This document shows positions 50,474-56,140 of a DNA stretch of 64,000 bases, piece by piece. The notes beneath the pieces are model-generated. The model did not search any database, was not told the DNA's origin, and worked only from the letters and a program-made list of their open reading frames with translations. Source of the DNA: an uncultured Gemmatimonadales bacterium (GTDB taxonomy: Bacteria > Gemmatimonadota > Gemmatimonadetes > Gemmatimonadales > GWC2-71-9); assembly GCA_963795085.1 (NCBI GenBank), contig CAWCFX010000001.1, positions 192,001 to 256,000 of the forward strand, given 5' to 3'. The position numbers and the translations under genes were made by a program. Every line of letters starts with the position of its first letter. Within the stretch, counting starts at the first letter, position 1.

Positions 50474-51852
50474 GTCAGAAACCAACGGTCCTCATCATCG
50501 ACGACGAGTCGGGCATCCTCGATACCCTGCGGATCCTGCTCAAGAAGGAAGGCTTCGAGGTCACCACCGCCCAGGGCGGCAAGGCCGGGCTGGACCAGAT
50601 CCGGGCCGGCACCCACGATATCATCCTGACCGATGTCCGGATGCCCCAGGTGAGCGGCTTGGACATCCTGCAGGCGGCGCGGGAGCAGGACCCGATGACC
50701 CCGGTCATCCTGATGACGGCCCAGGCCTCGCTCCAGACCGCCATCGGCGCCGTGAATGCCGGCGCTTTCTATTATATCCAGAAGCCCTTCGCCAACGACG
50801 AGCTGGTCGCCATTCTCCGGCGCGCCTGCGACTACCGCGCCGTCAAGGTCGAGAACAAGCACCTCAAGACCGAAATCCGCCGCAAGGACAGGAACGGCGT
50901 CGCCCGGCCCATCGGGAAGTCGCGGCGGTTCATGGACACCCTCAGGCTGGCCGAGCAGGTCGCCCCCACCGATTCGACCGTGCTGATCCAGGGCGAAAGC
51001 GGGACCGGCAAGGAAGTCATCGCCAACTACATCCACAATCTTTCCAACCGGACCGGCGGACCCTTCCTGTCCATCAACTGCGGCGCCCTGCCGGAGAACC
51101 TGCTGGAAAGCGAGTTGTTCGGCCACGTGAAGGGGTCGTTCACGGGGGCGGTCCGGGACAAGCAGGGCCTGTTCGCCGCCGCCCGCGGCGGCAGCTTCTT
51201 CCTCGACGAAGTGGGCGAGATGACGCCGGCCCTGCAGATCAAGCTGCTCCGGGTGCTCCAGGAACGGGAGGCGATCCCGGTCGGCGCCACCGAGGCCATT
51301 CCCGTCGATGTGCGGATCATCGCCGCCACCAACCGCGACCTGGAAGAGGAGTGCCGCCGCGGGGCCTTTCGCTCCGATCTCTTCTACCGGCTGAACGTGA
51401 TCCCGCTCCAGTTGCCCCCGCTCAGGGACCGGCGGGAGGATGTTCTTCCCCTCATGGAGACGTTCCTCCAGACCCTGGCCCAGGACCACGGAATGGAGCC
51501 CAAGGCGCTGTCCTCCGAGGCGCTCGACGCCGTGATGGTGTACGACTGGCCGGGCAATGTCCGGGAACTGGAGAATGCCCTGGAACACGCCGTGGTGCTC
51601 ACCAAGGGGCCCGTCATCGAGCCGTCCGCGCTCCCCGAGCGCATCACCAAGCGGCGCAAGGAGCCGCTGGTGGCGGAGCGGTCCTTCCAGAATCCCACCC
51701 TCGATGTCATCGAGCGCGCCTACATCATGTGGGTGCTCCAGGTAGAAGGCGGAAACAAGACCCGCGCCGCCGAGATCCTCGGCATCGACCCCTCCACCCT
51801 GTACCGGAAACTGAGCCGGTACGAGGAGGTGAAGGAGCCGGTGGGGAATTGA
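50470..51852 (+). CDS. pilR: PilR-like sigma-54-dependent response regulator
   Basis: Receiver (IDDE, TDVRMP, KP), GESGTGKE, ELFGHVKGSFTGA, FLDEV, WPGNVREL, Fis-type HTH. Confidence 0.85.
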   Translation: MSQKPTVLIIDDESGILDTLRILLKKEGFEVTTAQGGKAGLDQIRAGTHDIILTDVRMPQVSGLDILQAAREQDPMTPVILMTAQASLQTAIGAVNAGAFYYIQKPFANDELVAILRRACDYRAVKVENKHLKTEIRRKDRNGVARPIGKSRRFMDTLRLAEQVAPTDSTVLIQGESGTGKEVIANYIHNLSNRTGGPFLSINCGALPENLLESELFGHVKGSFTGAVRDKQGLFAAARGGSFFLDEVGEMTPALQIKLLRVLQEREAIPVGATEAIPVDVRIIAATNRDLEEECRRGAFRSDLFYRLNVIPLQLPPLRDRREDVLPLMETFLQTLAQDHGMEPKALSSEALDAVMVYDWPGNVRELENALEHAVVLTKGPVIEPSALPERITKRRKEPLVAERSFQNPTLDVIERAYIMWVLQVEGGNKTRAAEILGIDPSTLYRKLSRYEEVKEPVGN

Positions 51853-52127
51853 GGGAATGTTGGAATTGAGGGAATGTTGGAATTGAGGGAATTGAGGGAA
51901 TGTTGGAATTGAGGGAATGTTGGAATTGAGGGAATGTTGGAATTGAGGGAATTGAGGGAATGTTGGAATTGAGGGAATTGATCAGTTCAATTCCCGGATT
52001 CCTCAATTCCCCCATTCCCTCAATTCCCGGATTCCCTCAATTCCCGGATTCCCTCAATTCCCCCATTCCCTCAATTCCCGGATTCCCTCAATTCCCGGCT
52101 TCCCTCAATTCCCCCATTCCCTCAATT
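51845..52127. repeat. Inverted 17-bp tandem repeat arrays between pilR and pilA
   Basis: Left arm has about 10 GGAATTGAG interleaved with GGAATGTT. Right arm has about 9 CTCAATTCC interleaved with CGGATTCC or CCCATTCC. Centre near 51980. Confidence 0.95.
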
Positions 52128-52974: not shown

Positions 52975-54243
52975 ATGCACCTGCTCTCGCTGACTGATGA
53001 TAGTGCGCTTCGCGAGGAATTGCGCGGGACGCTGGGCGACGAAGCATGCGAGTTCCGGAGCCCCTCCGCGTCGGCCCAGGAGCTGGAGCAGGCCATCATC
53101 CGGAGCCCCGAGGCCATCCTGCTCGATCTCGCCGGGGCGGCCGAAGCGGGAACCGCATTTTTACGGTCCTTTGCCGAGCGGGGCGAAAACATCCCGGTCC
53201 TGGTCATCTGCGGCGCCGATCAGCGCGAGGCCGGTCTCCGGGCGCTCAAGTCCGGCGCGGCCGATTACCTGATGCGGCCGGTGTCCATGGATGAGCTGGG
53301 CGCTCGGCTGGCCCGCGCCCAGGAGGCCGCCCATCTGCGCCGGGAAACCGCGGCGCTCCGGGTCTCGCTGGAGCGCAATTCCGCCCGTACGGCGTTCGTG
53401 GCGGAGAGCGAGATCATGGTGGGGATCCGGGATTCCGTCGCCGCGCTGGCCGGCGGCCACGAGCCGCTCCTCATGGTCGGCGAGCGGGGGACCGGGAAGA
53501 AGACCCTGGCCGAGTTCATCCACCGGCTCGACGGCCACCGGCGCACCCCGCCCGGCATTCTGTCCTGCCATGCCCTCGGTTCGGGACTGCTCGACTCCGC
53601 CGCCTGGCAGGCGGCGCGCGACTCCGGCACCGCCATTCTCGAAGGCATCGAGAACCTCCCCCGCCCCGAGCAGGAGCGGTTGGCCGCGAGCCTGGGGACC
53701 AACGGCGCGAAACGTCCCGTGCGGGTCATCGCGATCGCCCGTACCCACCTGGACGACCCGGACCAGCGGGGCACCGTGTCTCCCCAGTTGTTCGAGCGGT
53801 TCGCGTCCTCCATGTTCGTGCTGCCGCCGTTGCGGGAGCGCGCGCCGGACATCCCGGCGCTGCTCGCCCACTTCGCGCAGCGCACCGCGCAGCGCCTGGG
53901 CCGGCCGGTCAGCGTTTCACCCCGGGCCCTGGCCATGCTGGCGGTGTATTCCTGGCCGGGCAACGTGGCCGAACTGGAGAGCGCCGTGGAACGGGCCGCC
54001 CTGCTGGGCGGCAGCGGCCGGCTGGAATACGCCGATTTCGGCTTGGTGCCGGGTCTCGCCAGCCCGGGCGAAACACCAGGCGGCGCCCTGGAACTCAAGC
54101 CCCAGGTCGAGGCCTTCGAGCGCCAGGTGATCCTCCAGGCCCTCTCCGCCGCCAAGGGAAACCGGCAGGCGGCCGCTCGGCTCCTGGGCATCAGTCTCCG
54201 GACCCTCTTCTACAAGATCAAGAGGTATGGGGTGGAGGGTTGA
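52975..54243 (+). CDS. Degenerate NtrC-like regulator (REC-AAA-HTH) lacking the GAFTGA loop
   Basis: GERGTGKK, LPPLRER, WPGNVAELES and HTH GNRQAAARLLGISLRTL present. No GAFTGA; Walker B reads ILEGI. Confidence 0.82.
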   Translation: MHLLSLTDDSALREELRGTLGDEACEFRSPSASAQELEQAIIRSPEAILLDLAGAAEAGTAFLRSFAERGENIPVLVICGADQREAGLRALKSGAADYLMRPVSMDELGARLARAQEAAHLRRETAALRVSLERNSARTAFVAESEIMVGIRDSVAALAGGHEPLLMVGERGTGKKTLAEFIHRLDGHRRTPPGILSCHALGSGLLDSAAWQAARDSGTAILEGIENLPRPEQERLAASLGTNGAKRPVRVIAIARTHLDDPDQRGTVSPQLFERFASSMFVLPPLRERAPDIPALLAHFAQRTAQRLGRPVSVSPRALAMLAVYSWPGNVAELESAVERAALLGGSGRLEYADFGLVPGLASPGETPGGALELKPQVEAFERQVILQALSAAKGNRQAAARLLGISLRTLFYKIKRYGVEG

Positions 54244-54244
54244 G

Positions 54245-54960
54245 GTTGGCTGGCGTTACTTGGATTTGAGTCTGCCCGAACCAACAAAGCACGAAAAGAA
54301 ACACAAAAGAAGAAACTTTCCTCGTAGTAACTTCATCTTCCCAAGACTTTTGGTTGTTCTGTCTTCTCGTTTCGTGATTTGTGGTCCGGCGGTTCTGGCT
54401 GGCGTCACTCTGATTTGAGCCTGCCCGAGCACGAAAGCACGAAGGACAAATAGAAACAGCAAAAAAGACTATCGCGTGTGATAGTCTTTCCTTTTTTCTG
54501 CTATTTGGTCGTTTGGTCGTTTGGTCGTTTGGCTGTTGGCTCGCGTCACTTGGATTTGAGCCTGCCCGGAACTACAAAGCACGAAAAAAACAAACAAAGA
54601 AGAAACTCTCCTCGTCTTGGCTTCGCTCCCAAGGCGTTGATTCTTCTTGTTTCTTCCTTTCGTGATTTGTTGTCCGGCAGTTGGTGCTGGCGTCACTCAG
54701 ATTCGAGCCTGCCCGGGACAACAAAGCACGAAAAATACAAAAAGAATAAATCTCCTCGTCGTAACTTTATCCTCCCAAGACGTTGCTTTTCCTGTTTTTC
54801 TTTATTTCGTGATTTGTTGTCCGGCGGTTTTGGCTGGCTCTTCGGCTGTTCGGCGGTTCGGCCTTTGTCAATCGGATTTGAGCCTGCCCGGACCAACAAA
54901 GCACGAAAGAACAAAAATAAAGCTTTTCTTTTCTGTCATTTCGTCGTTTGGCTGTTAACG
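54245..54960. repeat. Array of five ~150-bp AT-rich imperfect palindromic units
   Basis: Core GATTTGAGCCTGCCCGRA-N-ACAAAGCACGAAA at 54263, 54412, 54553, 54700 and 54875. Complementary arm TTTCGTGATTTGTKGTCCGGC at 54370, 54658 and 54805. Confidence 0.9.
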
Positions 54961-54979
54961 CTGTTTTGGATTCCTTTTT

Positions 54980-56140
54980 CTATTGGCAGCCATTCACCCC
55001 CGGATTTCGATCCCTCGGATCCCGGCCCGGCAGCGTCCCGTCCAGCCGCAGCGCGTAGCTGTCCTGCACGTTGTTCCCCTCATAGCGAATGGACTGCAGG
55101 ATCATCGCGGCGCGGGTCCTGGTGCTGTTCAGGCTGTACCAGTTGTTGGTGGACTCGGTATAGACCGGCCCGCAGCGTACCAGCTGGACCGCGATCCCCT
55201 TCTCATAGACCACGCCGAGCATATGCTCGCCGCGGGGATGCATCCCGTTTTCGTCGAAGAAGACGGCCTTCACCTGGGTGGCCGTCCCACTGGCCCGTAC
55301 CGAGAACTTCCGCCCGGCCCAGGCCACGTTCCCGTTGAGGCTCACCGGGTTCGGGTCGCCCAGGGTGTTGTAGTCCACCCGCTTCGGGCCGGCGGAATCC
55401 CAGGCGATCTCGGTGGGCAGGGCCACCAGCGCCTTCCAGTCGTAGAGCGCGGGGCCGGCCGGCGCCAGCAGGGTGAAGACCGCCTGGGCCAGGATCTCGT
55501 GCGGCTTGCGGGTGGAGACCGGCGCCTGGGCTGCGCCGGCCGCGCATTGCGTGCTGTAGAGCGCCAGCTGGTTCGGCTGCAGTGCCGGGAGCTCCTCGCC
55601 GTGGGATAGGACATAGCCTTCATTGGGACGGCCCGGGCGGCCGGCCTGGATGGACAGGAAGCCGGGCGACAGGTTGGCCCCCCTGAGCCGGTACCAGCTG
55701 GTGCTGCCCGCGCCGCCCCGGATCGGGCACCGGGCCAGTTCGGCGCCCAGGCCGGCCTGCTTCAGCGCCGCCACCACCGGCGCCTCGCCGATCGGCGCCC
55801 CGGTGTTCCGGAAAAAGATGTTGAGGACCATGGTCCGGGCCCCGGTCGCCATCACCGTGAAGCTCCGGCCGCCGACCGTCGCGGTGCCGGTCCGGGTGAA
55901 ACACCCGCCATCGGGGAGGCAGCTCTGCAGCGCTGCCACCGGCAGCGGCGCCCAGCGGATGGCCGGGAGTTTCTCGAGCCCGTCCCAGTCGGCGGGAAGA
56001 CTCATCGCGAGGTAAGCCCTGGCGATACCGGCCAACTCACTCTCCGGCGTAGGGCCGGCGTGGAAGGCGGAGAGCCCGATCGCGGCAGCGGCGGCGGCGA
56101 TTGCCCCGATGGCAAACCTGGTTCGCATGGCTGTTCTCAC
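54980..56140 (-). CDS. Secreted hypothetical protein with internal two-fold duplication
   Basis: Signal peptide, high-GC3 codon usage. Halves share DW..L..LP..I.W, G....GR.F.V.A.G, L.RC and WY.L. Confidence 0.75.
   Translation of the reverse strand: MRTAMRTRFAIGAIAAAAAAIGLSAFHAGPTPESELAGIARAYLAMSLPADWDGLEKLPAIRWAPLPVAALQSCLPDGGCFTRTGTATVGGRSFTVMATGARTMVLNIFFRNTGAPIGEAPVVAALKQAGLGAELARCPIRGGAGSTSWYRLRGANLSPGFLSIQAGRPGRPNEGYVLSHGEELPALQPNQLALYSTQCAAGAAQAPVSTRKPHEILAQAVFTLLAPAGPALYDWKALVALPTEIAWDSAGPKRVDYNTLGDPNPVSLNGNVAWAGRKFSVRASGTATQVKAVFFDENGMHPRGEHMLGVVYEKGIAVQLVRCGPVYTESTNNWYSLNSTRTRAAMILQSIRYEGNNVQDSYALRLDGTLPGRDPRDRNPGVNGCQ

Follow-up and report, generated by a model that had tools for sequence, protein, structure and literature searches.

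Five tandem units of about 147 bp lie at positions 54245-54979 of the window, the 64,000-nucleotide stretch of an uncultured Gemmatimonadales genome (contig CAWCFX010000001.1, positions 192,001 to 256,000) analysed here. They occupy the whole 736-bp gap between two convergent genes, running from the TGA stop codon of a plus-strand regulator gene (54241-54243) to that of a minus-strand gene (54980-54982). We consider it probable that this array consists of gene-less, tandemly duplicated members of a family of palindromes built from repeated words, similar to MITEs (miniature inverted-repeat transposable elements), the complete form of which would be cassettes carrying a GxxExxY nuclease gene. 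The data point to fast-evolving, lineage-specific repeat DNA and not to a conserved RNA gene. In its exact form the family is private to this genome, while the wider class pervades this genome and its order. The array is real, and the handle that it offers on a partnership between a nuclease and hairpins is more interesting than the array itself.

Architecture of the array

The first 16 nt of the unit core have five exact matches in the 3.89-Mb genome, every one within the array; they start at 54263, 54412, 54553, 54700 and 54875, giving spacings of 149, 141, 147 and 175. Tandem Repeats Finder reports a period of 147 nt with 4.1 copies and 68% matches over 54246-54838. The units measure 109-175 bp and are 63-82% alike over 90 nt, and a profile built from all five (nhmmer) recovers the window cores with E values of 3e-18 to 3e-15. 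All have the same polarity, A-rich then T-rich, and the first begins 2 nt past the regulator's stop codon. Conservation is greatest in a 5' module of about 50 nt, which is far better preserved among the five units than their interiors. The G+C fraction is 0.445-0.49 over 54200-54999, against 0.715-0.74 just upstream and 0.655-0.755 downstream.

A box of the GGCTGGCGTCAC type stands ahead of the core in four of the five units and has diverged in unit 5. Units 1, 3 and 4 have in common a TCCTCGT ... TCCCAAG middle and a 21-nt 3' element, TTTCGTGATTTGTKGTCCGGC, which is the reverse complement of the word part of the core save for one G-opposite-A position that is constant in the three units. This inverted core is thus present in three of five units, and units 2 and 5 have retained only the 5' module, with octamer runs at their ends. 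The first-pass annotation, made from the letters alone, had described the core spacings, the usual presence of the preceding motif, the near-complementary 3' element with its recurrent mismatch, the differing interiors and octamer ends of units 2 and 5, and the low G+C; all of these descriptions stand.

Unit 1 (54245-54395, on the plus strand like the others) shows the full order of box and core, A-rich run, middle, T-rich run and inverted 3' core. Its core (54263-54298) is composed of GATTYGAG, the GC foot CCTGCCCG and the A-rich word ACAAAGCACGAAA, and its inverted core (54370-54390) reads TTTCGTGATTTGTGGTCCGGC, with counterparts at 54658-54678 in unit 3 and 54805-54825 in unit 4. Unit 2 (54396-54534) lacks the inverted core; its 5' module and A-rich run lead to a 10-bp palindrome (54464-54489) placed between the A and T runs, followed by a T-arm in which TTTGGTCG is repeated 3.6 times without error (54504-54532). 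Tandem Repeats Finder also detects AGCACGAA twice within the array. Unit 3 (54535-54681) has the best predicted fold and carries in its core the 18-mer GAACTACAAAGCACGAAA, to which we return below. Unit 4 (54682-54856) has 35-nt arms that are 80% complementary, followed by a short octamer run of the GGCTGTTC type (54836-54862). Lastly, unit 5 (54857-54979) combines its diverged box with an intact core, a short A-rich then T-rich interior and an octamer-like T-arm, and ends at the stop codon of the convergent gene. The units are old tandem duplicates, in which both duplication of whole units and slippage of words, as in the perfect TTTGGTCG run, are visible.

No cargo gene was found inside the window units, where the only open reading frames (ORFs) across the array traverse the T-rich strand (no Pfam scan was made of them), and no gene cassettes lie between the units (an integron integrase was not searched for). 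Short contigs from a public soil DNA run, which may be the source sample, reproduce 54188-54410 and 54569-54899 at 0-1 differences; the array is therefore no product of misassembly. Across three public DNA runs, parts of the array sequence were confirmed and no joints were seen.

A dispersed word family with a fixed polarity

The units belong to a family dispersed over the genome. A 10-mer word and its complement, allowing at most one mismatch, form 32 clusters of at least two matches; the total of 253 matches compares with 207 for a reversed control, and the real signal is the clustering, with many alternations of A-arm and T-arm. An nhmmer profile of the five 5' modules finds more copies elsewhere, at many of these 32 loci, and BLAST of the 716-bp array finds 17 places in the genome.

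The loci follow a common grammar: a GC foot (CCCTGCC-like), an A-rich word, variable filler, a T-rich word and the inverted foot. This unit frequently stands in tandem, 2-6 times, and at C6:826.6k and 829.1k (loci outside the window are written in this form) the arms have a 14-nt period. Subfamilies are distinguished by the box outside the foot. The window-type box has eight copies at two loci, namely the five window units and three copies at C1:9.1-10.4k, and the TCCTCGT/TCCCAAG middle has three matches in the genome, all within the array. Another subfamily, of about 10 loci, carries the hexamer GAYNRT at exactly 12 nt from the foot, across a spacer of variable sequence (35 matches at 12 nt versus 3-17 at other spacings in the range 6-19). 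At some loci this box faces the hairpin from both sides, in the manner of terminal inverted repeats.

The arms obey a purine-first rule. Among two-hit clusters with both strands represented, the A-arm precedes the T-arm in eight of eight, and of the 25 mixed clusters of a second, G-rich word family, 22 put the purine arm first and 1 the pyrimidine arm, and 2 are complex. When the left of a palindrome is rich in purines on one strand, it is so on the other too, so the order amounts to one bit of information per element. We infer that such an order may ensure that, in transcripts arriving from either direction, a pyrimidine-rich stretch attractive to Rho is never left unpaired. With opposite-strand arms of reiterated words, occurrence at many loci and the purine arm first, the family has the properties of word-repeat palindromic intergenic elements, and considerably more than a hundred clusters, from four word families, are found in this genome.

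Several loci show more elaborate arrangements. The locus C1:9050-10450 has direct repeats of about 200 bp that each include a box of the window type and a T-arm; they enclose a small gene whose protein has a signal-peptide-like start, and G-rich decamer arrays and C-rich complements are interleaved with these repeats. At C6:826.6-829.5k, near-identical arrays of family units lie on either side of one 689-aa gene and resemble the ends of a composite element. The locus C6:837650-838250 is nested: a C-rich array of one word family sits inside the loop of an A-word/T-word hairpin, with its G-rich partner outside.

Link to GxxExxY and four-helix-bundle genes

This genome contains four PDDEXK_3 (GxxExxY) genes, all above the Pfam cut-off, six matches to PF05635 (four-helix-bundle proteins of the type found in 23S rRNA intervening sequences, here IVP) and three Y1-transposase loci. 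The word of the window is linked to the first of these classes. At C1:823.84-824.48k, an intact GxxExxY gene stands between a window-type A-arm, which starts directly past the upstream stop codon, and a T-arm. The protein scores 141 bits on TIGR04256 (cut-off 35) and has intact GxxExxY, D and ExK motifs; it is the one copy in which the catalytic motifs were inspected. The 18-mer GAACTACAAAGCACGAAA is common to the left arm of this cassette and the core of unit 3, and occurs four times in the genome. A search by sequence returned no solved structure for a GxxExxY protein.

The link extends to other genera. Of 301 genomes of the order, 28 contain the 14-mer CACGAAAGCACGAA, a count that includes this genome (G000) and the unpublished genome G128, and it is multi-copy in G000 (32), G044 (45), G288 (20), G080 (17) and G150 (15), which represent scattered genera of two families. 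When 29 loci in other genomes were picked solely by the 14-mer word, a PDDEXK_3 gene was found between or beside the arms in four (L040, L043, L044 and L051), Pfam having been run on the 30 of 106 candidate ORFs that lie between or beside arms. In five genomes rich in the 14-mer word, five of nine PDDEXK_3 genes have that word type in their flanks (L080, L081 and L083 among the loci); they are distributed over four of the five genomes, with none in G191.

A sample of 61 genomes of the order, in which inverted arms had to lie within 300 nt on both sides with a local alignment score of at least 14, shows such arms around 28 of 30 PF05635 (IVP) loci and 15 of 30 PF13366 (PDDEXK_3) loci. The polarity rule recurs here, the purine-rich arm being first in 20 framed IVP loci versus 1 and in 9 framed PDDEXK_3 loci versus 1. 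By eye, the arms of nuclease genes are made of CACGAAAG, CACGGAG or CGCAGAG-type words and those of four-helix-bundle genes of other, mostly G-rich words. Words of the type C[AG]C[AG][AG]A appear in 12-13 of the 15 PDDEXK_3 arms versus about 2 of the 28 IVP arms, again by eye; this pattern was chosen post hoc and is a lead only. In our genome, four PF05635 genes are flanked by mirror arrays of G-rich words. For three of the four IVP genes tested, the flanking words form 51, 55 and 25 clusters; the fourth word forms 20, mostly single matches.

The arm word of the window thus frames cargo genes both in its own genome and in relatives, as would be expected of a gene-less derivative of GxxExxY/IVP hairpin cassettes. 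Among the titles and beginnings of abstracts that we surveyed on GxxExxY, PDDEXK_3, PF13366 and PF05635, none described genes framed by repeats.

Turnover of the site in relatives

In four genomes of the same genus the 10-mer word is not enriched over control, and the family as such is absent there. BLAST of the 716-bp array against 40 relatives gave no match, and exact core patterns, both of the window type and of the commoner foot-plus-word type, had no match in the species-representative genome and metagenome collections, a search that misses diverged copies.

The site itself turns over between congeners. Orthologues of the regulator are present in three same-genus genomes (L075, L076 and L077) at 58-71% identity. 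In one, the regulator's stop codon is directly followed by a G-rich decamer array, a four-helix-bundle (IVP)-type gene, assigned by eye from the locus sequence with no family scan run, and a complementary array. The second congener has only arm remnants after the regulator and the third has unrelated sequence. In all three, co-oriented prepilin-type genes follow the regulator, with no convergent gene as in the window. In L077 and L076 the regulator's TAG stop codon touches or overlaps the word with which the inserted element begins, so the element may supply or replace the stop codon in these two genomes.

Folding and alternative explanations

The first-pass annotation had described the units as self-complementary and interpreted them as long bulged hairpins, possibly a multi-copy non-coding RNA, for which covariation was to be expected. 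When the plus strand is folded as RNA against shuffled controls, the advantage is clear for unit 3 (z -5.8), weak for units 2 (z -2.2) and 4 (z -2.5) and absent for units 1 (z +0.3) and 5 (z +0.65). Units 1, 3 and 4 show no compensatory changes; their cores are near-invariant, and the few differences produce mismatches. In a pairing test on 39 cleanly delimited family units, the 5' half of each interior was compared with its own 3' half and with those of other loci, reverse-complemented. The own-partner mean was 0.21 versus 0.26 across loci, and the own partner was best in none of the 39 units, so the long A-rich and T-rich stretches pair by composition only. The specifically inverted part is the foot plus word, about 20 nt. 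Self-complementarity thus holds for the inverted cores of three units but as a fold clearly above shuffles for unit 3 only, and the covarying long hairpins are not supported. G-T and A-C mismatch totals (158 versus 138) are uninformative as to the strand whose RNA might be under selection, the unit definitions having merged neighbours and included loops.

These results bear on the proposal that the units are multi-copy small RNA (sRNA) genes of the plus strand, made from a signal of their own in the box or processed from the 3' untranslated region of the regulator mRNA, with the UCCUCGU ... CCUCCCAAG middle serving as an anti-Shine-Dalgarno seed. We regard it as unlikely. The 5' module and the middle are indeed the best conserved parts of units 1, 3 and 4, the uniform polarity and the start just past the stop codon of a co-oriented gene would suit such a role, and the hexamer of the related subfamily, with A as its second and T as its sixth base and a fixed distance of 12 nt from the foot, is like a -10 element. 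Tandem homologous sRNAs with CCUCC loops are, moreover, known elsewhere (CcsR1-4 of Rhodobacter). However, Rfam 15 with permissive filters yields seven matches at E <=10 and none near its gathering score (the best has 22.6 bits versus 55), a scan of 53800-55400 finds no sigma-70-type promoter, and no -35-like element is apparent by eye before the hexamers. The lack of compensatory changes and the two units that fold like shuffles also argue against sRNAs, as do the confinement of the middle to the array and of the window-type box to two loci, the absence of core matches outside this genome in the searches described above, and the hexamer boxes that face a hairpin from both sides.

A second alternative is a terminator or insulator between convergent genes, exapted from repeats, whose A-then-T hairpins would stop or pause polymerase arriving from either side or be cut by RNase III. 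The gap is occupied from stop codon to stop codon, the purine-first rule is identical for both directions of transcription, and the unit-2 palindrome, which an A run precedes and a T run follows, is terminator-like on both strands. The family is also enriched in convergent gaps: by our own crude gene calls (ORF length plus GC3, about 78% of the genome covered), convergent genes border 12 of 31 clusters, compared with 369 convergent pairs among the 2614 gene pairs (14%) of the whole genome. The count leaves aside one of the 32 clusters, C1:177842, which consists of two overlapping same-strand matches. Yet the other 19 clusters are outside convergent gaps (14 tandem and 5 apparently divergent), and terminator-like sites in the region number 3 versus 2.5 +/- 1.4 in shuffles, two of the three being the unit-2 palindrome read on both strands with only three GC pairs. 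At C1:1228.3k the array follows what is by eye a canonical GC-stem and T-tract terminator, which makes it superfluous for termination there, and five units exceed what termination needs. A terminating function as the explanation of the array appears to us improbable.

Mobilisation as repetitive extragenic palindromic (REP) or REPIN elements by RAYT, a Y1 HUH transposase acting on single-stranded hairpins, is in our view very improbable: the family is dispersed and palindromic, one subfamily has a short motif at a fixed distance from the foot, as GTAG has in REPs, and of the three loci with Y1_Tnp homologues one, whose gene contains an in-frame TGA, has a single family copy (C4:547963) some 0.9 kb away, but none of the three is flanked by the window word family (each has other repeats of its own nearby), the units are about 150 bp and not 20-40 bp, and the genes between arms of the window word type encode GxxExxY proteins and not Y1. 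The Y1 locus at C4:546400-547300 is a separate REP-like system, in which the Y1 (IS200/RAYT-like) gene split by the TGA has a 24-nt tandem array on one side and GC-rich hairpins on the other. Among the readings of the first-pass annotation, that of REP/REPIN-like, non-autonomous elements served by an enzyme encoded elsewhere is the one favoured by the data (32 clusters, absence as a family from four congeners, framing of GxxExxY genes here and in other genera), but RAYT is not the enzyme.

Equally remote is an array of binding sites for a DNA-binding protein, such as the adjacent Fis-type regulator or a nucleoid protein, with the roughly 30 loci as regulon or loading sites: 5' modules of about 50 nt that are conserved and evenly spaced next to a regulator gene would fit, and paired tandem-repeat sites in Geobacter metallireducens were read by their authors as global-regulator sites (PMC2700814), but the sites here are at gene 3' ends and not at promoters, usual operators are far shorter than the conserved part, the regulator orthologues of congeners are trailed by other elements or none, and the window-type box recurs at one other locus only.

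Two further candidates were rejected. A sigma-54 -24/-12 reading of the box fails by eye on its GG-to-GC spacing. [quoted passage not shown]

Flanking genes

The upstream neighbour (52975-54243, plus strand) encodes an NtrC-type response regulator with a receiver, a degenerate AAA+ domain and a Fis-type helix-turn-helix. Walker A is present, but the protein has no GAFTGA motif and no clear Walker B, and sigma-54 activator profiles match it in two separate stretches only; on these grounds it may work without sigma-54. The convergent downstream gene (54980-56140, minus strand) encodes a 386-aa protein with no Pfam or NCBIfam family. It was found in only 7 of 61 genomes of the family, this genome included, has different neighbours in the six other genera in which orthologues occur, and was not found in four same-genus genomes.

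The window contains a second mirror element, at 51844-52127, between a pilR-like gene and the pilin gene. It consists of an array of a 17-nt G-rich word (51844-51981) and, after 5 nt, its complement (51987-52127), and this confrontation of a G-rich array with its complement accounts for the swing in GC skew there. The 17-nt word accounts for 51 clusters genome-wide, and at C6:19.7-20.0k a four-helix-bundle gene is framed by it.

Proposed origin and mechanism

Based on the above data, we favour the view that the array is made of gene-less members of the word-repeat family. Each copy has a short GC-rich foot and an A-rich word at its left and, in the full form, their reverse complement at its right, with A-then-T filler between. 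Complete members of the class enclose a gene, for the GxxExxY PD-(D/E)XK nuclease in the case of CACGAAAG-type words and for the four-helix-bundle protein of the 23S-rRNA-intervening-sequence type in the case of G-rich words; the gene-less copies would be their non-autonomous, MITE-like derivatives. Their spread or maintenance would be helped in trans by the GxxExxY nuclease, probably through cleavage at the hairpin or word and copying during repair. Transcripts reading through from the flanking genes would fold only locally, at foot and word.

Going one step further, the units could be the non-autonomous half of an undescribed mobile system composed of a nuclease and hairpins, an idea that we put forward tentatively and consider doubtful as it stands. 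The GxxExxY protein would recognise arms of its own word type (CACGAAAG-like here) and cleave at a set distance from the foot of the hairpin; the element would be copied as the break is repaired. By this route copies with and without cargo would reach the first bases past stop codons, and insertions with the purine arm first would do no harm to transcription arriving from either flank.

Several observations weigh against our preferred interpretation. The C1:823.9k cassette has neither the GC foot nor the box of the window units, so it is through the shared word alone that the window subfamily can be derived from it. No mobility event was seen directly, in the form of a filled and an empty site with target duplication (duplications were not searched for). 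The congeneric genomes are bins of fragmented short-read assemblies, 64-94% complete, where repeats of this kind may have escaped assembly. In addition, the GAYNRT box of another subfamily, at its fixed 12 nt, looks like a functional signal, perhaps a promoter element akin to a -10 box or a site of recognition or cleavage. The conservation of the 5' module over the interiors may likewise reflect function as a promoter, processing site or binding site beyond common descent; together with the fixed-distance box it exceeds what drift alone would leave, and we keep in play a signal for recognition and cutting, transcription or processing.

If the derivation from nuclease cassettes is correct, the array does not regulate the pilin/regulator locus but is one visible product of a repeat system that shapes much of the intergenic DNA of this soil lineage. 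The link between gene-less hairpins and the nuclease would then provide a candidate substrate for GxxExxY proteins, a small uncharacterised family common in many phyla, and AT-rich 'sRNA-like' arrays met by annotators in such genomes may be repeat debris.

Comparison with known systems

REP, BIME and REPIN elements with RAYT, as well as Correia and NEMIS MITEs, are short, palindromic and non-coding; they are dispersed between genes, often after them, lineage-specific and clustered, and have a protein-coding relative or partner elsewhere. The window family shares these traits. It differs in its partner, which is a GxxExxY PD-(D/E)XK protein encoded inside the arms and not a Y1 or DDE enzyme, and in arms made of reiterated words. 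As to MITEs in particular, inverted cores are present in three of five units and no target-site duplication was seen, although neither duplications nor a DDE transposase with these ends were searched for.

Intervening sequences of 23S rRNA with an S23p/four-helix-bundle ORF lie inside rRNA and are cut from the RNA by RNase III. Like the class described here they have a small ORF bracketed by pairing arms, and the protein family is the same too, sister elements in this genome having PF05635 as cargo; the window units, in contrast, are gene-less and lie between protein genes. CcsR1-4, or 'cuckoo' RNAs, of Rhodobacter are tandem homologous sRNAs with CCUCC loops and resemble the array: in both, a row of several similar units, each about 100-150 nt long, follows a small gene and carries apical C/U-rich motifs. 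Unlike them, the window units have no Rfam match or conserved structure and are part of a dispersed repeat family.

The closest published descriptions, as judged from the accessible parts of both papers, are the convergent GGGAATC heptamer repeat pairs of Xanthomonas campestris and X. axonopodis, with related repeats in Nostoc, whose function is given there as unknown (PLoS One 2015, PMC4692102), and the paired tandem-repeat sites of classes 2 and 3 in Geobacter metallireducens, interpreted there as binding sites of global regulators (BMC Microbiol 2009, PMC2700814). The Geobacter sites, each of 3-5 tandem words of 7-9 nt, form opposite-strand pairs at variable distance and tens of loci, as does the window family; in the text available, however, no cargo gene, whole-unit tandem array or purine-first rule is described for them (PMC2700814). 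The Xanthomonas and Nostoc repeats likewise consist of tandem short words facing their complement, are intergenic and occur at many loci near stop codons (PMC4692102). Unlike the repeats so described, the words of the window are A-rich and do not form G-quadruplexes, the arms carry a non-repetitive GC foot and a box, the hairpin units are themselves in tandem, and complete relatives have a cargo gene, which the available text does not mention for those repeats (PMC4692102). In the light of these descriptions, the array is a variant of such intergenic repeats.

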